Source of the DNA: an uncultured bacterium
Lineage (GTDB): Bacteria > Bacillota_I > Bacilli_A > RF39 > UBA660
DNA length: 64,000 nt
Reading direction: 5' to 3'
Assembly (NCBI GenBank): GCA_949292245.1
Contig: CASEYV010000001.1
Span: 52,433-116,432, forward strand
Shown: positions 3,910 through 59,624 of the stretch, in pieces
How positions within the stretch are numbered: the first letter of the stretch is position 1
How the letters are laid out: every line of letters begins with the position of its first letter
Made by a program: the position numbers and the translations under genes
Notes under the pieces: model-generated
The model's database searches: none
The model's input: the letters and a program-made list of their open reading frames with translations, nothing else
Told to the model about the DNA's origin: nothing

Positions 3910-3987
3910 TGGCATTCCCAGAGGGATTCGAACCCCCACTCTTTTCGTTCGTAGCGAAATGCTTTAGTCCAATTAAGCTATGGGAAC
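3910..3987 (-). tRNA. tRNA-Arg (anticodon ACG), CCA encoded
   Basis: The reverse complement folds as a cloverleaf. Acceptor stem is GTTCCCA/TGGGAAT, D-stem GCTT/AAGC with a GG loop, anticodon stem TTTCG/CGAAA around loop CTACGAA (U33, A37). T-arm is GGGGG TTCGAAT CCCTC, followed by discriminator G and CCA. Confidence 0.85.
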
Positions 3988-4041
3988 ATTGTATTATTTA
4001 GGATAAGTATAATAACTATTTTATAAAATGTCAATGGTTAT

Positions 4042-4563
4042 TTATCTATTAGTTGAACCTAACCCACCTTTTCTTTCACCATCAGTTTCATCATCATAAG
4101 TTATACCATATGGCAAGAAAATTCCTTGGCAAAATGCTTTTCCTCTCTCTAAATCAATTATTTTATCACCATCATTTTGAATTTTTACCCATATATGACC
4201 TTCATTATTTTCATTATTATAATAATCTTCATCAATAACTCCAATAGAATTACCAAGTCTTAATGAATATTTAAAACCTAACCCTGATTTTGGGAAAATA
4301 CCTAAAAACCAACCATTATCAACCATACATTTTAATCCAGTTGGAATTTTTATTGATTGGTTTGGCTCCAAATAAATTCCAATTGGAGTTACTATATCAT
4401 ATCCAGCCGAGCCTTTAGTTGCTCTTGTTGGTAATTTGATAATATCATTTAATGTCGTTGATTGAAATGATTTACCACTTTCATTATCTGTAAATAAATG
4501 TGCAGTATCTTTTTCCCATTGTTCAATACTAATTTTTTCGAATTTTCCAACTCTTACTGTCAT
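4042..4563 (-). CDS. dut: dUTP diphosphatase (dUTPase)
   Basis: dUTPase motifs are present: SAGYDI (motif I), GVIDEDY (motif III) and C-terminal RKGGLGSTN (motif V). Confidence 0.85.
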   Translation of the reverse strand: MTVRVGKFEKISIEQWEKDTAHLFTDNESGKSFQSTTLNDIIKLPTRATKGSAGYDIVTPIGIYLEPNQSIKIPTGLKCMVDNGWFLGIFPKSGLGFKYSLRLGNSIGVIDEDYYNNENNEGHIWVKIQNDGDKIIDLERGKAFCQGIFLPYGITYDDETDGERKGGLGSTNR

Positions 4564-9315: not shown

Positions 9316-10491
9316 TTAGTTTTGTGGATTAATATTAAATTTATTTAATATATTATTAATAACTGCTTGTGTATCAGTATCAGAAATTGTTTCTGAATTT
9401 TGAGCAATTAACTGTGGAGCAGTCATTTGTTGTTGAGGAGTTGTATTAACCATTTGTTGAATCATATTTTGTAATTCAACAGCTTGTTGTGGATTAAAAT
9501 TCAAATTAGGTTGAACATTATTAACCACAGGTTGTGCCATTGTATTTACATCATTAGCAACATATTGAGTAGTGGTTGGAATTTCAGTTGCTACTGTCGT
9601 AGCATTCTTTCCGCCTTTAACATCTTTAATGTTACCTTGTTCATCAAAGAATACATTATCTGGTTTGAAAATTTTGCCCCAACGAGCTACATCATAAGGT
9701 TCTGAATTATATGATGCTTCGAACAATTCCAACATTACGTTTTCTTGTTCTTTTGTAGGTCTTGATGGAATAAAGTTTTTCAAAACAAATGGTTTATTTT
9801 CACTTAACCATGCTTTTTCAACTTCTGTCAATGGTGATTCATTACTTGACCATTTAGAAGTAGAATAATCTTTAACTTCTTGTGGTTTACCGTTAATATT
9901 AGCAATTTTTTTCGTTACTTTAAGAATAAAATCTCTACCATGTTCCATATCAGATGGTGTATGTTCGATTTCATCATCAGTAATAAATGAATAAATTACA
10001 TTAAACAAATCTTTATTAATTACAAATCTATAAAGTTTTGTTTCGTAACCTTCTGCTCTAATAAATCCTTGAAAAATATATCTTTCTGTTCTTCCAAATT
10101 TATTATATAATTTAGTTCCTTCTTCTGTTCCATCCCATAAAGGTTTAATTTTTTGATTGATTACATCATCAGAACTGTAATACAAATAATCTTCTGGAAG
10201 ATTAGATAAATTAACATCACCCTTTTTGATATTAAATGCTGGAACACTAACAAATGTTCTATTATCCATAATAGTTCCATTTGCCAATTTAATAGAATCA
10301 AATCTTAATGTTCTTGTAGAACGAGTTCTCCAAAAGAAATCATTTGGTTCGCCGTCATCAACGAATCTGATTCTAATTTGGTCTCCAATATTTAATTTTG
10401 AAAATGAAAATATAGATGATGAATCGTAATTTGAATTTGATTTTTGTGATGAGCTAATTTTAGCTCTTAATTCTGCAATAGATAATGCCAT
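9316..10491 (-). CDS. gp32-like single-stranded DNA-binding protein (candidate) with Q/N-rich C-terminal tail
   Basis: N-terminus ALSIAELRAKISSSQKSNSN...GDQIRIRFVDDGE resembles the T4 gp32 N-terminus (TAELAAQMAKLNGNKG...GQAVIRFLP). It sits next to uvsX. The C-terminal 80 aa are low-complexity Q/N-rich. Confidence 0.4.
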   Translation of the reverse strand: MALSIAELRAKISSSQKSNSNYDSSSIFSFSKLNIGDQIRIRFVDDGEPNDFFWRTRSTRTLRFDSIKLANGTIMDNRTFVSVPAFNIKKGDVNLSNLPEDYLYYSSDDVINQKIKPLWDGTEEGTKLYNKFGRTERYIFQGFIRAEGYETKLYRFVINKDLFNVIYSFITDDEIEHTPSDMEHGRDFILKVTKKIANINGKPQEVKDYSTSKWSSNESPLTEVEKAWLSENKPFVLKNFIPSRPTKEQENVMLELFEASYNSEPYDVARWGKIFKPDNVFFDEQGNIKDVKGGKNATTVATEIPTTTQYVANDVNTMAQPVVNNVQPNLNFNPQQAVELQNMIQQMVNTTPQQQMTAPQLIAQNSETISDTDTQAVINNILNKFNINPQN

Positions 10492-10585
10492 TGTGTTCTC
10501 CTTAAATTTGTTTTCAATTAGTTTGTTTTCAATTAGTTTGTTTTCAAAATGTAGTTGGCAACTACATTATATATTTATCAAATAA
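10492..10585 (-). promoter_or_regulatory. 5' leader of the SSB-like gene: a 15-nt tandem repeat (tttgttttcaattag, 2.9 copies at 10507-10549), a perfect palindrome (aatgtagttg g caactacatt, 10548-10568), and an SD AAGGAG
   Basis: Direct reading. The hairpin plus U-run would also terminate the upstream bS21 gene. Confidence 0.4.
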
Positions 10586-31116: not shown

Positions 31117-31202
31117 AATTATCTCCTTATAAAAAGCAAGTTAAGTTCTTGTAAAAGACCTATTAAAGCATCTTTTACAAGAACTATTTATCATGCTTTT
31201 TA

Positions 31203-32456
31203 TCAATTTTCAATATTATTTGACAAATATTTTATCATTTCTTCGTGATAAATTTCACCAAATTTTTTTCCAGAAAATTTAGAAAGTCTTTCTTGAACTT
31301 TTTCTGGTAAATCTTTTAAAGTTATGCCGTGCATAACATCAAAAATTTTTAACATTCTTTGTTCAATTTTTTGTCTTTCTATTTTTTCTTCATCTGAAAC
31401 TGTTAATGCTCTACCATAACAATCACATCTAGTTACTTCAATGAAATCAATCAATCTTTGACGATTTTTGAAATTTAATGAAATAGCTTTAATCATATCG
31501 TATTGCTTTCTTAGCTTCATTTGATGAAATCTATGAGCATTCATATGATAACGACAAGATATTAAAGCAAAATCACGATATTCATTTGGAATTTTAACTC
31601 TATCACATAATTTTTCAATTACTGATAATCCATTAAATTCATGACCATGATGAGCTGGTAAAATATCTTGTGGAGTTAATGCTTTACCTAAATCATGACA
31701 CAATACAGCAAATTTAACCATTGGAGATAATTGATTCCAATCAGCAACTCGCAAACACAACATTGTATGTTCAAAAGAATTACCTTCTGGATGATATTCC
31801 AATTTTTCTGGAGTATCAATTAAAGCATACAATTCTGGAAGAACAATTTTTAATGCTCCACTTTCTTGGAGATTTCTAATGAATTTTTCTGTTATACAAT
31901 TAGATTGTAATGCTTTTTCAATTTCTTTCCATACTCTTTCTTCTGTTAAGTGTTCAATCATTTTATTTTCAACCATCGTTTGCAATAAATTCATAGTATT
32001 TCTTTCAATATTAAAATCTAATTGAGCTGAAAAACGGCAAGCTCTTAATAATCTTAATGGGTCTTCGATAAAAGTTTCATCACGAACAGCTCGTAATAAT
32101 TTATTTTTTAAATCATCTTGACCATTAAAATAATCAATTACATTTCCATTTTCATCTAATGCCATAGCATTAATTGTAAAATCTCTACGAACTAAATCAT
32201 CTTCCAAAGAAACATCAGATGAAAATTCAAATTCAAAATCAGTATGTTTATCACCAATTTTTCTTTCTTTTCTTGCTAAAGCATATTCTTCGTTTGTTTC
32301 TGGGTGTAAAAACACAGGAAAATCTTTACCTACTTGGTGAAAACCAAGAGATTCCATTTCGGAAATAGAAGAACCAACAACAACATAATCATTATCATGT
32401 GATGTTCTATCTAATAATTTATCTCTAACTGCCCCACCAACTAAATAAGTTTTCAT
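31203..32456 (-). CDS. cca: CCA-adding tRNA nucleotidyltransferase (class II, with HD domain)
   Basis: N-terminal LVGGAVRDKLL, the RRDFTINA-type head domain and an HD motif (CHDLGKALTP, HHGHE). Confidence 0.85.
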   Translation of the reverse strand: MKTYLVGGAVRDKLLDRTSHDNDYVVVGSSISEMESLGFHQVGKDFPVFLHPETNEEYALARKERKIGDKHTDFEFEFSSDVSLEDDLVRRDFTINAMALDENGNVIDYFNGQDDLKNKLLRAVRDETFIEDPLRLLRACRFSAQLDFNIERNTMNLLQTMVENKMIEHLTEERVWKEIEKALQSNCITEKFIRNLQESGALKIVLPELYALIDTPEKLEYHPEGNSFEHTMLCLRVADWNQLSPMVKFAVLCHDLGKALTPQDILPAHHGHEFNGLSVIEKLCDRVKIPNEYRDFALISCRYHMNAHRFHQMKLRKQYDMIKAISLNFKNRQRLIDFIEVTRCDCYGRALTVSDEEKIERQKIEQRMLKIFDVMHGITLKDLPEKVQERLSKFSGKKFGEIYHEEMIKYLSNNIEN

Positions 32457-32772: not shown

Positions 32773-33924
32773 TCAAGCATTTTTAATAAAATCTTCAACC
32801 ATATCGGCTAATTTATCATAAGTTAAATCGCTAATATATTGCATAGCACAATCGTATTTGTTATCGATAGCTTTAAACATATAATTAGAGAACTTACAAT
32901 TTTTTAATATGTATTGAGCTTTATCTTTTCTGCTTTCTAATGAATTGATGTAATCAATATTAGAGTTATATTCATCATCGATTGCGTTAATCAATGAGTG
33001 ATATCCATCTAACATTCTTTGAATATTTAATTTATATTCAGAGAAATAATTTAAGAATTCATCAATTTCATTATTGACAATTAATATCATTGCTTTTTTA
33101 GGAGTTAAAATTCCTTGTCCTTTCAAATGATGCACTGCAACATAAGATGGAGATTTAACTTTAACTCTATTGAAATTTTTATCTACAACGACATATCCTT
33201 CTTCTGTATATGGTAATTCATTTGCTGCCAAAATACATTCATTTAATGATTTAAAACCATATTGTTTTGGAGTTTTAAATATTTTTGCCAAAGGATGGTC
33301 ATAAATTAAAATTTCTTCTAATGATTTGTTATTTCTAACACCAATCAAGCATAAATTAATTCCTTCATAAGGAATAACAACTTTATTATATGGTGAAATT
33401 AATTCAAACATATAAGTATAGTTTTCTTCGAATAAATCTAACCATTTATCTTTTGAAATTGATTTTAATGGTTCAGCATTTTCAATTAATTCCTTATAAT
33501 TAGAATATTTAAAATCTAAATTTTGAGCAACTTCGGCTTTTGAAGCATCGATAGTTCCATTAGTAGAAATCAACAAATCATTACCCAATCTAACTATTTT
33601 AATTAAAGAACCGTCAATTTTTTGAGTAATTTTAGCAGATTTCCAATCTATTTCTGGACAATATGATTCACCATAATTTCCAAATTTGTAGAATGGAACA
33701 GATACTGGTTCTAATGAATCAATATCAATAATCAATCCACGGCATTCTCTAACGATTTCATTATTAAAATCAGAAGAAATTTGGTTATATTTTAATAATG
33801 CTAAATTTCTACCATACATATTATCTTTAGATACAGATATACAATATGGAGATTGAGCTAAATCATCTTCCCAATTTTTATGTGATTTAATATATTCAAT
33901 AACTTTTAACATTTCAATCTCCAT
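32773..33924 (-). CDS. rnlA: RNA ligase 1 (T4 RnlA-like)
   Basis: Motif I TQKIDGSL (KxDG). ECRGLIIDIDS aligns with T4 ECRGIMFEMDG. EGYVVVDKNFNRVKVKSPSYVAVH aligns with [24 protein letters not shown]. Confidence 0.85.
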   Translation of the reverse strand: MEIEMLKVIEYIKSHKNWEDDLAQSPYCISVSKDNMYGRNLALLKYNQISSDFNNEIVRECRGLIIDIDSLEPVSVPFYKFGNYGESYCPEIDWKSAKITQKIDGSLIKIVRLGNDLLISTNGTIDASKAEVAQNLDFKYSNYKELIENAEPLKSISKDKWLDLFEENYTYMFELISPYNKVVIPYEGINLCLIGVRNNKSLEEILIYDHPLAKIFKTPKQYGFKSLNECILAANELPYTEEGYVVVDKNFNRVKVKSPSYVAVHHLKGQGILTPKKAMILIVNNEIDEFLNYFSEYKLNIQRMLDGYHSLINAIDDEYNSNIDYINSLESRKDKAQYILKNCKFSNYMFKAIDNKYDCAMQYISDLTYDKLADMVEDFIKNA

Positions 33925-51093: not shown

Positions 51094-51713
51094 TATTGAG
51101 CTCCCATTTCATCATTATTAGATACAACACTTTCTAAATTATCATCTGTATCTTGGTCATCTTCTAATTTGTTTTGTATAGCTTCTAAATCATATACATT
51201 ATTATTAATAATATGTTTATTTGGAATTAATATATCAACTAACCATATTTTTTCTTTTTTTAATTTTGGTCTTTGACGACCAGTTTTATTATCGACAACT
51301 ACATCTTTTTCAGATTTTACATCAACCGGAAGCATTTCATATGATTTAGTATATTCTACTTTACAATCATATTTTGTTAAAATAACACCTGCTTTTGGGT
51401 CAGGACATTTATCTTCTTTTTTATCATCGCTTCTTGGAGATTTAATAACAATATTTGTAAAATATTTCATAAATTTTACATCAACTACTTCTGCATCCAA
51501 CCAATTAGGAAAAGCATATATATGTAAAATATCAAAAAAATCATCAATGTTCATTAAAACATCTAAATAACTTTCATTCTTATAAAGTCTTTGAATAAAT
51601 TGATATTGTTGTAATAAATATAGATTCATTTTATATCCTCGTATTTTAATATAAAAATATTTATCTTGTATATTTTCTTTTATTACCTCAAATTTTATAA
51701 TTAAATATCTCAA
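51093..51713 (-). CDS. hypothetical protein
   Basis: 206-aa ORF. Confidence 0.35.
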   Translation of the reverse strand: MRYLIIKFEVIKENIQDKYFYIKIRGYKMNLYLLQQYQFIQRLYKNESYLDVLMNIDDFFDILHIYAFPNWLDAEVVDVKFMKYFTNIVIKSPRSDDKKEDKCPDPKAGVILTKYDCKVEYTKSYEMLPVDVKSEKDVVVDNKTGRQRPKLKKEKIWLVDILIPNKHIINNNVYDLEAIQNKLEDDQDTDDNLESVVSNNDEMGAQ

Positions 51714-55071: not shown

Positions 55072-55539
55072 TCAATGATTATTATTCATCATAATATTCA
55101 TTCCTAAAAATAACATCGAAAAAATGAACACTCCAAAACAAGTTGTATTAATCATAAAAGTTAAAACTAACGATAAAATTGATAGAACAAATAATAAAAA
55201 ATTAAAAATATGAAAAATACTAAAATTAAAAATATGAAAAATACTAAAATTAAAAAAATTAGTTTTATCTTTATATTTTTTATTATCGATTTTTATTCTA
55301 TCATTCAAAAATACTTTATTTAACCATAAATTATACGAATCAGTTTGAGTATTACTTTTTATCAACCTAATAATATTTTTTAACTCATAAAAATTCAAAT
55401 ATTTAACAATGTTTTCATCGTCAGTAAGATTATTCTCATAACATTCTAATCTATAATTCATAGAAGATTCGAATAATTCACTTTCATCTTTAAAATCTTT
55501 TGTAAAATATTTTTTAACCAACTCGTTTCTATTTGCCAT
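55072..55539 (-). CDS. hypothetical protein with C-terminal TM segment; contains a 24-bp tandem repeat
   Basis: aaaaatatgaaaaatactaaaatt occurs twice at 55203-55250, encoding FNFSIFHIFNFSIFHIFNF. Confidence 0.3.
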   Translation of the reverse strand: MANRNELVKKYFTKDFKDESELFESSMNYRLECYENNLTDDENIVKYLNFYELKNIIRLIKSNTQTDSYNLWLNKVFLNDRIKIDNKKYKDKTNFFNFSIFHIFNFSIFHIFNFLLFVLSILSLVLTFMINTTCFGVFIFSMLFLGMNIMMNNNH

Positions 55540-56341: not shown

Positions 56342-57001
56342 TCAACAACTAAATACAAAATCAATCCATTTTTTAAAATTAGGATATTTTTCATATCTAT
56401 TTTCTTTTATAACTTTTAACATATTTAAAATATCTTTTTTATCATAGTTATATTTTTCAAATGGATATTTTATATCTGTTTTTTTATTTTTGTATCTTTT
56501 TAAACGATATTTTACAATTTCATTAAATATAATATCAAAATTTTTATCTTTAATATTATTGACCAAAGTAATTAACTCTATATCATCATTATTTAATGAT
56601 TCAAAATCATCGTTTTGATAATACATTGCTTTTTGTCTATTATACAGAATATTTAATTTATATGCTTGCATTGAAGTTAATTGTATATCGACATTATCAA
56701 AATAAGTTGAAGTATTATTTTCATTATCAATAAAATATATGTCTTTAATACTCTCAAAATTATCAACAATAATGTAGCAATTATAATTTATACTAAAAAA
56801 AGCATATTTTTTATTTCTAATATCACTCCATTCATGCATGAAATTTAAAGTATCAATATGAACTTCATCCAGAATATCACTAATAACAGATTCAAATCGA
56901 GTATATATTTCAAGTTGCTTAAAATCGTTTTCTGACATTTCTTTATTCATATAATCCATATCCATATACGGGTTTACAAATTGTTTAAAATCAATGTGCA
57001 T
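56342..57001 (-). CDS. hypothetical protein
   Basis: 219-aa ORF. Confidence 0.35.
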   Translation of the reverse strand: MHIDFKQFVNPYMDMDYMNKEMSENDFKQLEIYTRFESVISDILDEVHIDTLNFMHEWSDIRNKKYAFFSINYNCYIIVDNFESIKDIYFIDNENNTSTYFDNVDIQLTSMQAYKLNILYNRQKAMYYQNDDFESLNNDDIELITLVNNIKDKNFDIIFNEIVKYRLKRYKNKKTDIKYPFEKYNYDKKDILNMLKVIKENRYEKYPNFKKWIDFVFSC

Positions 57002-57714
57002 TAATTATACTCCGTAGTTTCACCTTTACGCAATTTATATGCTTCAGAAACCGATTTTACAAAGCATCTTCCTAAATCATCAACATATCTTTCATTAAGA
57101 GGTCTAATAACAACACCTTCTCTAATTTGGTCTTTATTAGTTCCCAATGTTGTTTTACCAGATGTCAATTCCATAACTTTATCATAAGAATATGGACCAA
57201 CATAAAGAGATGGAACTCTTTCAATTCCAACTTCATCGGCAAATTGCTTGCATTCTTCAAAATTAAGGAATCTTCCTTGTCTTGGTTTTCCAACATAAAC
57301 ATCAAATAATCTATATCCAACTTTACCATTTGTCAAACCATATTTCAAATCTTGCATACCATATGTTTCACCAAACAAAGTAACCATATCATTTTCTTGA
57401 TAAAGTTTTGAATTTACAACTTTTTCTTCGATATTATTTTCTTTAAATGCCCTAACATAATATGCGTTTTCATTAGAAGCATTATTTTTAAAGAATAAAC
57501 CTTTATCTCCTTGACCCTTTGAAGCAATATAAATATCTTTATTTTCGCCAAATGTTTCATCATTTGAATTACCTTTTGCAAAAATAAATCTTGTTTGAGA
57601 ATTGTGTACTAAAATATCATTAGCAAAAAAATTATGATTATATTCTACTTCAATATCATAACGTTTAGAATCATTTTTAATTTTCTTTATATTCTTTATT
57701 GTAAAAACCTTCAT
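57001..57714 (-). CDS. split-intein C-fragment (about 38 aa) fused to the C-extein of an Rnl2/Rnl5-type RNA ligase
   Basis: The start is probably the ATG at 57714 (RBS AGAGGTG). RYDIEVEYNHNFFANDILVHN|S matches intein blocks F and G ending in HN plus Ser. The extein carries ligase motifs III LFGETYG, IV YRLFDVYV and V EGVVIRP. Confidence 0.8.
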   Translation of the reverse strand: MKVFTIKNIKKIKNDSKRYDIEVEYNHNFFANDILVHNSQTRFIFAKGNSNDETFGENKDIYIASKGQGDKGLFFKNNASNENAYYVRAFKENNIEEKVVNSKLYQENDMVTLFGETYGMQDLKYGLTNGKVGYRLFDVYVGKPRQGRFLNFEECKQFADEVGIERVPSLYVGPYSYDKVMELTSGKTTLGTNKDQIREGVVIRPLNERYVDDLGRCFVKSVSEAYKLRKGETTEYN

Positions 57715-58920
57715 TTTCACCTCTTTCTATAAATTTTTTAATTATATCTTTAACTTTATCAAAATTTTCTTTAATATCTTTTTCCCAAACATATAAAACA
57801 TCATATCCCAAATGTTTATATTCCTTAAATTTTTGATAATCTTTATCCCACAATAATTTCGCTTTATCATTATAACCCCAAAATCTTATTAAATCATTTG
57901 ATTTGTAAATTTTTGGATTGGCGTGATAAATATCCCCATTAACTTCAATAATCTTATTGTTTATAACACAATCTGCATATTTAACTTTGTTATTACATAA
58001 TATTTTTTTATTGTTTATAACATCATATCCTTCACTAATTAAAAAATCAAGAACTTTCTTTTCAACTTTTGAAATTTTTCGTAATTGTGTTTTTCCTTTA
58101 TGATGAAATAATGAAATATGAGATTTAAATTTAATATCTTCTCTTTGAAAAATATTTGTTATCCCATAATCATCAAATAATTGTTGTTCCCATTTTTTAC
58201 GACTTTCAGTATTTTTACAAAAATTATGTTCATAACCAAAATTTTTTAAACAAGTTTCTTTATATCTTTGTTTTCTTTCAGCTTCATTGCAAGATTCTTT
58301 AATAGTTCTTGTATCAATATTAAAAAATTTCATTTTTTTAATAATTGCTTTTGTATTAATGCCTGTTTGTTCGCTTATCCATTTGGCAGAATGTCTATTA
58401 ACAATATATTCATTATATAAATATTCTTTTGTTAATATTTCATTTTTATATTTTTGATATTCATTACATTTTGCAAGATGTCCTTGCATAGAACCTTTAT
58501 GTCCATCTTTTTTTATTTCAACTTTCTTATGACAATATTTACAAATTTCGGTGTGCATCTTTTCTCCTTATTTTTAAAATATTTATCAGAAAAGATGCAC
58601 GATGTATCTTTTCAGTTATTATCAATTAATACAGTTTCTGTTCCATCTAAATCTTCAACTGCTCTATAAGCATTTAAGTTTTCACACCATACTAAATGAT
58701 TTCCTGTTAATTTAATAATTGAACCATCTTCTAACTCAATTAAATACCAATTATCAATATTTTCTTGTATAGATGTTCCTAAAACAGGACGATATTCAAT
58801 TTCTTTAGTATCTAAATTATAAGATTTTACCATATCATTTGTAATATCTTTTTCAACATATTCACCGATTTTTATTTTACCATATTTTAAAGAATCAATA
58901 ATAGTATTATAATCTGCACA
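57601..58920 (-). mobile_element. split mini-intein (IntN 58615-58920, IntC 57601-57714) flanking a free-standing homing-type endonuclease gene
   Basis: Canonical intein blocks A, B, F and G sit in two separate ORFs with an endonuclease ORF in a third frame between them. The insertion point is immediately after ligase motif I (KVHG|S). Confidence 0.7.
57677..58558 (-). CDS. free-standing endonuclease, Vsr-like/DUF559 (PD-(D/E)xK) with N-terminal zinc ribbon, inserted between the two intein halves
   Basis: Own RBS AAGGAG. CKYCHKKVEI....HLAKC is the zinc ribbon. C-terminal HLGYDVLYVWEKDI resembles the GYxVLRFWExE motif of Vsr/DUF559 endonucleases. Confidence 0.55.
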   Translation of the reverse strand: MHTEICKYCHKKVEIKKDGHKGSMQGHLAKCNEYQKYKNEILTKEYLYNEYIVNRHSAKWISEQTGINTKAIIKKMKFFNIDTRTIKESCNEAERKQRYKETCLKNFGYEHNFCKNTESRKKWEQQLFDDYGITNIFQREDIKFKSHISLFHHKGKTQLRKISKVEKKVLDFLISEGYDVINNKKILCNNKVKYADCVINNKIIEVNGDIYHANPKIYKSNDLIRFWGYNDKAKLLWDKDYQKFKEYKHLGYDVLYVWEKDIKENFDKVKDIIKKFIERGENEGFYNKEYKEN

Positions 58921-59544
58921 TCCATGAACTTTTTCAGTCGCTTCAAAAATTTCACCATCAATAAAAGCATCCATATATTTTTGAATTGGTTCTACATCAT
59001 ATGGAACAACAATTTCAGTTCCACCATTAAAGATTTCACCACCCATACTAGCAGGAATTGGTTGTTCATATTTTGTAATACCAAGAAAATCGGCAACATT
59101 TTCACCTTCGACAGCAGGTAGCCAACTTATATATGAAGTTTTTTCTGAAATAATAAATTTTTGGTCATCAGAATAACCCCATTGTTTAGCACAACCATGA
59201 CAACCCTCATCATATTCAGTTTCAGTCATAGCTGGATATAAAACACCTTCAGAAAAAATACCACGAAGTTTTAATGGTTTAACACGATTACCGTCTTTAC
59301 CAGCTAAAATACCTTTATTTTTTTCAAAATCCCAAAAATTCATTCTTTTAAGCAACCATTCAGGAAGAACAGCATTTTCAGGAATATATACTACCAAATC
59401 GCCAACATTATAACGGTCTGAACCATCTTCTAATTTATTGGAAATACAAGTATATCCACCAATTTTATACAATGTTAGTCTATCAGCATTTGGGTGATTT
59501 TCTTTTTCATCAATTTTAACTACTTTACATTCAAAATTTGCCAT
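58612..59544 (-). CDS. N-extein of an Rnl2/Rnl5-type RNA ligase (N-terminal HPNADRL domain plus motif I KVHG) fused to a split-intein N-fragment (about 102 aa)
   Basis: N-extein ..VVKIDEKENHPNADRLTLYKIGG...GDLVVYIP...EATEKVHG, then intein block A CADYNTIIDSLKYGKIKIGE and block B GSIIKLTGNHLVW, then stop. Confidence 0.8.
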   Translation of the reverse strand: MANFECKVVKIDEKENHPNADRLTLYKIGGYTCISNKLEDGSDRYNVGDLVVYIPENAVLPEWLLKRMNFWDFEKNKGILAGKDGNRVKPLKLRGIFSEGVLYPAMTETEYDEGCHGCAKQWGYSDDQKFIISEKTSYISWLPAVEGENVADFLGITKYEQPIPASMGGEIFNGGTEIVVPYDVEPIQKYMDAFIDGEIFEATEKVHGCADYNTIIDSLKYGKIKIGEYVEKDITNDMVKSYNLDTKEIEYRPVLGTSIQENIDNWYLIELEDGSIIKLTGNHLVWCENLNAYRAVEDLDGTETVLIDNN

Positions 59545-59624
59545 TACTTTTCTCCAATAAAAAATACCATATTTTATAATATGGTATTTTATTAAATTTA
59601 TTTAAAATTGTCAATAGTTATTTT

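Follow-up and report, generated by a model that had tools for sequence, protein, structure and literature searches.

A gene for an RNA ligase that is broken inside its own active-site motif raises the question of whether, and how, a complete enzyme could still be made from it. Such a gene occupies positions 57001–59544, on the minus strand, of a 64,000-nt stretch of metagenomic DNA from contig CASEYV010000001.1 (the whole stretch is referred to here as the window). Three consecutive open reading frames (ORFs) at this locus encode three separate polypeptides (Table 1), namely a ligase N-terminal half that runs in frame into the N-terminal part of an intein (IntN), a free-standing endonuclease, and the intein's C-terminal portion (IntC) fused in frame to the rest of the ligase. 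The best-supported explanation, to which a probability of about 0.85 is assigned, is that the two halves would be joined by protein trans-splicing into a 46-kDa ligase and that the interrupting segment (the cassette) spreads by endonuclease-driven homing. The order of the three elements had been proposed in an initial annotation of the window, and each of them lies where that annotation placed it.

Organization of the Locus

A ribosome-binding site (RBS) is retained at all three start sites, and the 3′ end of the endonuclease gene overlaps the first 38 nt of the C-half. For the C-half, a mechanical ORF list offers GTG 57720 as an alternative start; ATG 57714, the start used in the initial annotation, is favored because it is accompanied by a GAGGTG Shine-Dalgarno sequence and agrees with the gene calls on related contigs (237 aa). 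A match to a sigma-70-like promoter upstream of the N-half (TTGACA, 17 nt, TAAAAT; Table 1) is a candidate transcription start for the locus only, promoter-like sites not being enriched in the region (25 found against 24 expected, by consensus match only). Between this site and the RBS of the N-half, in window positions 59560–59600 of the minus strand, lies an AT-only hairpin (ATACCATAT-tataaa-ATATGGTAT) followed by T6, possibly the upstream gene's terminator or else an operator/attenuator.

The Interrupted Ligase and Its Uninterrupted Allele

Profile matches support the assignment of both exteins to one ATP-dependent RNA ligase of the TIGR02306/Rnl5-like kind, with a predicted N-terminal OB fold and an Rnl2-like nucleotidyltransferase domain. 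The N-half matches the OB-fold family PF21189 over residues 8–104 (2.1e-9, 38.2 bits; cutoff 27) and TIGR02306 with 93.7 bits, and the C-half matches PF09414 RNA_ligase (1.9e-18) and TIGR02306 with 72.9 bits. Each half taken separately is below the TIGR02306 equivalog cutoff of 151.15 bits, whereas the 407-aa product obtained by splicing in silico reaches 173.8 bits. The halves also cover complementary positions of phrog_968 (7–194 and 227–394), so that the proposed membership of both ORFs in a single ligase family holds. The computed mass of the spliced product (46.3 kDa) agrees with the value of about 46 kDa expected in the initial annotation.

Searched against the PDB, the spliced ligase matches the Naegleria RNA ligase NgrRnl (5cot), with “feateKvhGs” aligned to “fevtvKldGs”; the motif I lysine K205 is present and faces the KLDG of NgrRnl. 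By this alignment, the intein sits inside motif I, between Gly208 and Ser/Thr and three residues past K205, the predicted adenylated lysine (K-V-H-G/S, the slash marking the insertion point here and below), which supports the earlier placement of the intein at the lysine-adenylation motif. Adenylylation on K205 and the sealing of RNA nicks are the predicted activities of the enzyme. The KxHG form of motif I presumably resembles that of T4 Rnl2 (EKIHGTN).

The best database match of the spliced sequence is an uninterrupted 407-aa protein (P0039), which aligns without gaps and is identical at 403 of 407 residues; one of the four differences is the residue directly after the intein (+1), Thr in P0039 and Ser in the window. 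The P0039 gene lies in the same neighborhood of flanking genes on four contigs (L009–L012), the DNA of which matches the window at 97–99% identity as far as 58921 and once more from 57597 on (blastn and junction alignment), and it is this alignment that sets the 3′ boundary of the N-extein. At the site itself the window differs from the intein-less allele solely in a 1320-bp insert (58920–57601) and in the +1 codon, ACA (Thr) having become TCT (Ser). The insertion point reads ...GAAAAAGTTCATGGA/ACACAAACAAGA... in L009, and the predicted peptide across the splice junction is ...ATEKVHG-SQTRFIFAK (...EATEKVHGSQTR...). The P0039 locus represents a mobile element's empty allele and shows what the mature protein is expected to be. 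The EKVHG motif and the division of the ligase into N- and C-exteins, both read from the sequence in the initial annotation, are borne out by the profile matches and by colinearity with P0039. A short palindrome (GTTCATGGAAC) spans the insertion point in the empty allele only; its 4-bp arms may be due to chance and it was not used further, although the recognition site of the homing endonuclease I-Bth0305I is pseudopalindromic (PMC3239194).

A Naturally Split Intein

The interrupting element has the predicted features of a naturally split class-1 intein. In the N-half, ...FEATEKVHG is followed by CADYNTIIDSLKYGKIKIGE... and further on by ...KLTGNHLVW... (intein blocks A and B); block A (CADYNTIIDS...) begins at Cys1, TGNH represents intein residues 72–75, and the N-half stops 102 residues past Cys1. 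Blocks F and G then open the C-half and are followed by Ser, as had been described. Profile searches detect the intein at both junctions, with TIGR01445 intein_Nterm at 29.0 bits in the N-half (cutoff 24.5) and TIGR01443 intein_Cterm at 35.2 bits in the C-half (cutoff 15.6). When IntN and IntC are joined, residues 10–140 align with the NrdJ-1 split intein (PDB 8ubs, E = 1.4e-11), and matches are also obtained to the DnaX, Npu and Ssp DnaE, and gp41-1 inteins. All residues expected for splicing are present (Cys1, T72-G-N-H75, the terminal HN and Ser+1) and they are invariant among close alleles. NrdJ-1 and gp41-1, which are very fast and efficient trans-splicers, presumably also use Ser+1. The acidic character of IntN and the basic head of IntC (Table 1) have counterparts in NrdJ-1, IMPDH-1, and NrdA-2 (Dassa et al., 2009; PMC2677866), and both NrdJ-1 and gp41-1 come from fractured genes (PMC2677866).

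Trans-splicing would be needed to make the ligase. The TGA of the N-half is backed by further stop codons, so that read-through would add a short tail only, the diverged allele L007 ends its N-half with TAA, and the insert is 1316 bp long in L003–L006 and 1321 bp in L007, neither length being a multiple of 3; together these points argue against a contiguous ligase precursor. Recoding of TGA in a low-GC host was considered and rejected, since a TAA follows about 38 codons later in a frame that differs from that of the endonuclease and L007 uses TAA in any case. Likewise, the fact that the N- and C-halves of the window share a frame across the 1320-bp insert is a coincidence in view of the insert lengths of the other alleles.

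Selection and Mobility of the Cassette

Six filled alleles were compared (the window, L003–L006, and L007), spanning DNA identities of 81–98%, and none contains a frameshift or an internal stop. Pairwise dN/dS is 0.04–0.31 for the exteins, 0.03–0.37 for the intein halves (0.16–0.37 for IntN), and 0.14–0.19 for the endonuclease, values which indicate that all parts of the cassette and of the exteins are under purifying selection. The three-ORF layout was found on at least 24 contigs from independent samples in addition to the diverged phage L007, and the endonuclease clusters P0001 and P0002 occur on 4 and 48 contigs, as against 5 for the empty P0039. The lack of disruptions, the low dN/dS, and the presence of the filled form on more contigs than the empty one make a decaying pseudogene very unlikely.

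Exteins and cassette do not share one history of divergence. Between the window and L003–L006, dS is 0.03–0.10 in the exteins and 0.17–0.32 in the cassette. Between the window and L007 the values are 0.70–0.84 for the exteins, 0.25–0.28 for IntN and IntC, and 0.67 for the endonuclease; the IntC protein is 100% identical in the two, whereas the exteins have only about 77% DNA identity. In a sliding-window comparison with L007, identity is 0.91–0.97 over IntN, the part of the endonuclease gene that encodes the nuclease domain, and IntC, whereas in the spacer and that gene's 5′ part it is about 0.70. In a tree of N-exteins, the filled alleles fall into three separate clades, each beside intein-less alleles. 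This patchy phylogeny, the discordant divergence, and the empty/filled polymorphism in near-identical genomes all point to the cassette being a mobile element. Near-identical genomes show two states only, empty or with the whole cassette, the boundaries coinciding precisely with the ends of the intein. The database matches contained neither a contiguous (unsplit) nor an endonuclease-less form of this intein, including the best 150 relatives of IntN (see below), and for that reason the unit that is seen moving is taken to be the whole cassette.

Most intein-less alleles have Thr directly after the Gly of motif I, with Ser in P0050, Ile in P0053, and Met in P0080. P0050 is the intein-less sister of a fractured allele, P0097, and its Ser may be the footprint of a precise intein loss, or alternatively mark a site that was pre-adapted.

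The Endonuclease

By itself the endonuclease is poorly recognized by domain profiles. In Pfam its last 40 residues alone match DUF559 (PF04480) with 14.3 bits (E = 0.038), below the cutoff of 20.6, and an NCBIfam scan gave no match. Thirty-eight homologues were found at E ≤ 1e-3. When 24 of these are aligned, D196, G208, and P215 do not vary at all and E205, H212, N214, D240, and W258 hardly do; D196, E205, H212, and D240 are invariant or at least 90% conserved, while N207 belongs to an IEVNG block that aligns with that of 3r3p. A profile of the homologues searched against the PDB retrieved the catalytic domain of I-Bth0305I (3r3p) first (E = 0.0028) and the DUF559 protein 3hrl second. A structure model produced with AlphaFold2 (AF2; pLDDT 84) gave a similar result in Foldseek, with Vsr (1cw0) first (E = 1.3e-3), 3r3p second and third, and 1vsr fourth; on 3r3p the TM scores normalized to the target are 0.77 (rmsd 2.9 Å) and 0.75, the E-values being marginal.

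Three regions are distinguished in the protein, an N-terminal CxxC...HxxxC knuckle, a helix-turn-helix (HTH)/DUF7487-like middle part, and a C-terminal Vsr-like (EDxHD) nuclease domain with D196, E205, N207, H212, and D240 as its predicted catalytic residues. The equivalent N-terminal region of the homologues gives weak HTH/NUMOD1 and DUF7487 signals, and the N-terminal part appears to fit the modular design of DNA-binding plus nuclease domains seen in the EDxHD family, the catalytic motif of which was defined with I-Bth0305I (PMC3239194). The protein is best placed in this family of homing endonucleases and is related to DUF559 at the superfamily level only, through the match to 3hrl. It had been annotated as a Vsr/DUF559-like endonuclease with its own frame and Shine-Dalgarno sequence; the Vsr-like fold, the AAGGAG, and the separate frame are retained, and membership of DUF559 is not. 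No further copies of the endonuclease or of the intein were found in the window.

A homologous endonuclease (P0015) occurs without an intein, as a free-standing gene, in L017/L018 (1–1459). It is flanked on both sides by a duplicated C-terminus of its host gene (...DSVYAHGGADLRNDEFI[IV]YD...IVEI[SG]N-stop), and resembles an insertion by which the interrupted gene had its end restored.

Spacer and Expression Signals

A hairpin lies in the spacer directly after the stop codon of the N-half. Its position is kept in L003 with a compensatory G-C to A-T change, and in L007 it is replaced by a completely different and much stronger 14-bp stem (z = -8.56), the 5′ arm of which contains a GGAG decoy. 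In the window there is an alternative pairing for the 3′ arm, which involves the RBS and ATG of the endonuclease gene (-9.3 kcal/mol). Downstream of the hairpin, each allele compared has GATAAATA followed by a GGAG RBS. As a lead only, the hairpin would resemble the translational attenuator hairpins described for free-standing endonucleases (PMC2677866).

GATAAATA is under-represented in the window (6 found against about 15 expected), and five of the six copies lie on the gene strand, 20–90 nt upstream of start codons or of tRNA-Arg (Table 1). Its use as a general promoter motif was considered and dropped, the sample being too small for a conclusion. Downstream of the copy at 10579 there is a hairpin, tgtagttgccaactaca (window about 10490–10570, minus strand), after which three tandem copies of “ttgaaaacaaa(c/t)t(a)a” stand just before the RBS of ORF 10491–9316.

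Proposed Mechanism and Alternatives

In the mechanism favored here, the 35-kDa N-half and the 27-kDa C-half would associate through their acidic IntN tail and basic IntC head, respectively, to form one HINT domain, in which Cys1, TGNH, the terminal HN, and Ser+1 would perform protein trans-splicing to give the 407-aa, 46.3-kDa ligase. The endonuclease would cut intein-less ligase alleles at or near the sequence coding for motif I during co-infection, and repair after cutting would copy the whole cassette in (homing), while, more tentatively, the hairpin and GATAAATA that precede the endonuclease gene may restrict its expression or set the timing. Several points weigh against this account. Splicing, ligase activity, and DNA cleavage are all deduced from sequence. 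The likeness of the endonuclease to solved structures is remote (E ~1e-3, 18–22% identity), and it could act on a mini-intein allele instead of the empty ligase allele. Little is added by the AF2 model of the joined halves of the intein (pLDDT 65.6, with the IntC part below 50); it was built on homologue rows for the N-half only, the lack of IntC rows accounting for its poor quality, and its top Foldseek matches, the NrdJ-1 and Npu DnaE inteins, were given little weight in view of that low confidence. The spacer hairpin of the window is statistically weak, with z = -2.84 (local hairpin) and -1.80 (whole spacer), and that of L003 does not reach significance, and the suggestion that GATAAATA may be a T4-late-like promoter element of the phage is a guess from five sites.

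Among the alternatives, one bears on mobility alone and does not conflict with trans-splicing: the endonuclease could be a free-standing invader that targets a contiguous mini-intein, as in step II of the Dassa model, with the unit spreading or being lost by ordinary phage recombination alone. The dS of the endonuclease relative to L007, which is well above that of the intein halves (about 0.26), and the drop in identity over the spacer and the gene's 5′ part suggest that endonuclease and intein can be exchanged separately. Against this stand the failure to find any contiguous allele lacking the endonuclease, the termination of the best 150 IntN relatives at or near the IntN C-terminus, and the restriction of near-identical genomes to the empty and whole-cassette states, so that this course of events is regarded as unlikely. 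Splicing itself would be dispensable if the intein halves had been domesticated as a non-covalent dimerization module for the ligase fragments. A precedent exists in phage Aeh1, in which nrdA has reportedly been fragmented by a homing endonuclease and is reassembled via protein interaction domains derived from a mobile element (PMC3045599), and the TGNN or TENN found in place of TxxH in block B of relatives in L008, L013, and L015 indicates that catalytic positions can drift within the clade. The splicing residues of the window are nevertheless intact and do not vary among close alleles, and the +1 residue is Ser in every filled allele and Thr in the nearest empty one, as expected if it is a nucleophile tuned to the intein. 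Without splicing, moreover, the break being inside motif I with the catalytic lysine three residues away, some 140 residues of intein would be left lodged in the active site, and the closest solved relatives, NrdJ-1 and gp41-1, splice efficiently in trans; a purely non-covalent assembly is considered quite improbable.

The locus might also be a dead gene, the ligase having been destroyed by insertion and now decaying. Its loss could be tolerated thanks to the second RNA ligase (Rnl1) encoded in the window, and the element is selfish by nature. This is very hard to reconcile with the strong purifying selection on exteins, intein halves, and endonuclease, with reading frames undisturbed in six alleles and all three RBSs kept, and with the greater number of contigs that carry the fractured form. 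An artefact or chimera of metagenomic assembly is scarcely credible; the window and all its relatives do come from assembled metagenomes, but the same ORFs and junctions recur on many independent long contigs (including some of 250–281 kb) from different samples and pipelines, and again in a diverged lineage.

Comparison with Known Systems

Feature by feature, the locus corresponds to a “fractured gene” of the type described by Dassa et al. (2009; PMC2677866), and its layout is accordingly already known. Both have the same order on one strand (enzyme N part plus IntN, spacer, endonuclease, IntC plus enzyme C part), a phage origin, and a Vsr-like endonuclease. A spacer hairpin is present in both, in a spacer of 53 nt here and 27–51 nt in the paper; the ORFs of endonuclease and IntC overlap by 38 nt here and 6–69 bp there; and the intein parts are of similar size, with 102 aa for IntN (88–105 in the paper) and 38 aa for IntC (33–54). 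The charges agree as well, acidic in the N half and basic in the C half, and NrdJ-1 is the best solved relative of the joined intein. The host proteins reported in 2009 are gp41, IMPDH, DnaE, NrdA, NrdJ, DNA ligase, terminase, and one unknown protein, whereas the host here is an ATP-dependent RNA ligase, which is absent from the types named in that paper. A further difference is that the complete genome context is at hand here, together with an empty allele of 99% identity, while most of the 2009 loci were short pieces that lacked one end or both. No report of inteins in ATP-dependent RNA ligases was found in the literature searched, the coverage of which is incomplete, the only ligase inteins encountered being those of the RtcB type. 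The locus represents a known architecture in an apparently unreported class of host gene.

Other systems share single features with it. I-Bth0305I (3R3P; PMC3239194) likewise has a C-terminal Vsr-like nuclease domain and a modular N-terminal DNA-binding region, and D196, E205, N207, H212, and D240 here correspond to D196, N208, H213, D222, and a Glu there. It is, however, encoded in a recA group I intron and not between split-intein halves, identity is about 20%, the N-terminal CxxC...HxxxC knuckle with homologues matching DUF7487 belongs to the protein described here, and cleavage by the latter is predicted from sequence. The cyanobacterial DnaE inteins (Ssp and Npu) are also naturally split class-1 inteins, with an N part of about 102–123 aa, a C part of about 36 aa, and charge complementarity, and they trans-splice an essential enzyme; their gene halves are at separate loci with no endonuclease between them, whereas here the halves are adjacent and the cassette is polymorphic and mobile. 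In the Aeh1 nrdA/mobE system (Friedrich/Gibb/Edgell; Crona et al., PMC3045599), a phage enzyme gene is similarly split by a free-standing homing-endonuclease gene that reportedly has a regulatory hairpin upstream and overlaps the downstream half, but there is no intein and the halves assemble non-covalently. On the side of the host enzyme, the Rnl5-type ligases NgrRnl (5COT) and DraRnl (Deinococcus) have the same succession of an N-terminal OB and a nucleotidyltransferase domain. They differ in motif I (KxDG, against KxHG here) and in the linker or insert between the OB and nucleotidyltransferase domains, which is about 65 aa longer here, and identity to solved ligases is low (E ~1e-5).

Related Split Inteins and Multi-Piece Ligases

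IntN alone was searched against 1.84 billion cluster representatives, which yielded 470 relatives at E ≤ 0.001, of which the best 150 were inspected. All of these 150 end at, or no more than 25 residues past, the C-terminus of IntN and are split halves. Directly before Cys1, K-x-[D/H]-G is found in 108 of them and K-x-x-G in 12 more, so that at least 120 have a ligase motif I (K-x-[D/H/E/N]-G) at this position; several of the others represent register slips of motif I or a second site (KTDEER/C) about 26 aa upstream of it. A Pfam scan covering 147 of the relatives (P0184–P0330) identified as hosts the Rnl5-type OB fold in 54, Rnl1 in 13, and the adenylation domain of NAD-dependent DNA ligase in 4. 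These counts tip the balance slightly toward placing the window intein in a large clade of split inteins specialized on the adenylation motif of polynucleotide ligases (KxDG/KxHG). No description of such a clade was found in the literature.

Related cassettes, with endonucleases 37–41% identical to that of the window, fracture divergent OB-plus-nucleotidyltransferase ligases at the same position of motif I in L008, L013/L014, and L015/L016, the junctions being EKMHG/C, EKCHG/C, and LKLHG/C ... IHN/TS (Table 1). The initial annotation had held that fractured genes are reported mainly from metagenomes and that an RNA ligase host next to a second, intact Rnl1 is unusual. The arrangement is less unusual than supposed: its layout has been published, and RNA-ligase examples are numerous in metagenomes. 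Fractured RNA ligases are common there, and the window holds a typical and complete example with good genome context.

A TIGR02306-type RNA ligase in L019 (2227–6124), and likewise in L020, is divided among three coding pieces, with two split inteins and one EDxHD endonuclease gene per gap. The first ORF (252 aa) comprises the OB fold and the N part of a first intein (IntN-a) and is followed by an endonuclease of 322 aa; the third ORF (163 aa) consists of IntC-a, a 26-aa extein (CQNLASEY...ITEKLDG), and IntN-b, and is followed by a second endonuclease of 335 aa and by an ORF of 201 aa that contains IntC-b and the C part of the ligase. Spliced at both sites, the predicted ligase is full length and matches the entire TIGR02306 profile with 201.2 bits. 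Two orthogonal trans-splicing reactions would be required to make this ligase, and no report of a natural gene requiring two trans-splicing events was found in the literature. P0173 and P0180 are middle fragments of another host protein, with an N-terminal IntC that ends in ...HNFFANDILVHN/S and a further intein start near the C-terminus; by their organization, multi-fractured genes may exist outside the ligases as well.

Genome Context

The locus is carried by an uncultured AT-rich jumbo phage. The G+C content of the window is 21–32%, related contigs are 250–285 kb long, and the UvsX-like recombinase is about 45–47% identical to those of Atu_ph07-like and CBB-like jumbo phages. A megablast search of the locus against 50,697 phage records gave no match, and no cultured relative was identified. 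With tblastn, only distant intein-less RNA ligases (25–36% identity) were found, in Caulobacter and Brevundimonas jumbo phages; the apparent extension of these matches into IntC (query from residue 21) is spurious, as the genes are of 408–412 aa and intein-less.

The intact second RNA ligase of the Rnl1/gp63 type, which the initial annotation had noted, is confirmed by its profile matches (Table 1). Together with the adjoining CCA-adding-like enzyme and a tRNA-Arg it constitutes an RNA-repair/tRNA toolkit in the same genome. A small ORF on the minus strand at 55072–55539 contains an internal FNFSIFHI repeat, and its product is 147, 155, or 163 aa long among near-identical phage contigs, a variation that suggests tandem-repeat slippage.

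Table 1. Coordinates of the fractured ligase locus, of other features of the window, and of related loci on other contigs.
Feature	Positions	Strand	Description
N-half ORF	58612–59544	minus	310 aa, 35.2 kDa; ligase N-extein in frame with IntN; TGA stop
N-extein	58921–59544	minus	208 aa; PHA02142-type OB-fold and start of nucleotidyltransferase domain, to motif I E-K205-V-H-G208
IntN	58615–58920	minus	102 aa, net charge -11; Cys1 (block A), TGNH (block B); missing in intein-less allele
Spacer	58559–58611	minus	53 nt, from N-half stop to endonuclease start; hairpin 58613–58589, GATAAATA 58587–58580, AAGGAG RBS 58569–58564
Endonuclease gene	57677–58558	minus	293 aa, pI 9.3; free-standing, between the halves, other reading frame, own AAGGAG RBS
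C-half ORF	57001–57714	minus	237 aa from ATG 57714, 27.4 kDa; IntC in frame with ligase C-extein
IntC	57601–57714	minus	38 aa; blocks F and G; ends YDIEVEYNHNFFANDILVHN; first 20 residues net +5
C-extein	57001–57600	minus	199 aa plus stop (Ser+1, then 198 aa); Ser+1 = TCT 57600–57598; remaining nucleotidyltransferase motifs
Mobile cassette	57601–58920	minus	1320 bp: IntN, spacer, endonuclease gene, IntC; exact segment missing from intein-less allele
Sigma-70-like promoter match (candidate)	59586–59614	minus	TTGACA, 17 nt, TAAAAT; 11/12 positions; upstream of N-half
GATAAATA, gene-strand copies	4039–4046, 10572–10579, 31185–31192, 51658–51665, 58580–58587	minus	window
Second RNA ligase, Rnl1/gp63-type	32773–33924	minus	intact; PF09511 9.4e-15; phrog_562 2.3e-54
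CCA-adding/poly(A)-polymerase-like enzyme with HD domain	31203–32456	minus	adjoins Rnl1-type ligase
tRNA-Arg(ACG)	3910–3987		window
Other fractured ligases	L008 3–2114; L013 369–3040; L015 2581–5154		block B TGNN or TENN, not TxxH

Significance

Near-identical phage genomes with and without the cassette form a natural pair, in which both the exact homing site and the expected splice product can be read from the empty allele, and the discordant divergence of exteins, intein, and endonuclease bears on how split inteins and endonucleases assemble and exchange, as considered in the Dassa model. A Ser+1 split intein that is related to NrdJ-1 and gp41-1 and has hundreds of diverged relatives is also a possible source of orthogonal tools for protein ligation, and the three-piece ligase would exemplify the action of two split inteins on one protein. 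If a clade specialized on the ligase adenylation motif exists, a single lineage of intein and endonuclease would have moved many times from one ligase family to another, unrelated one via a shared active-site motif, and RNA ligase genes would be a hotspot for that lineage. The locus appears to extend fractured genes from the DNA-replication and repair enzymes known in 2009 to enzymes of RNA repair, with the break lying inside the motif of covalent catalysis.

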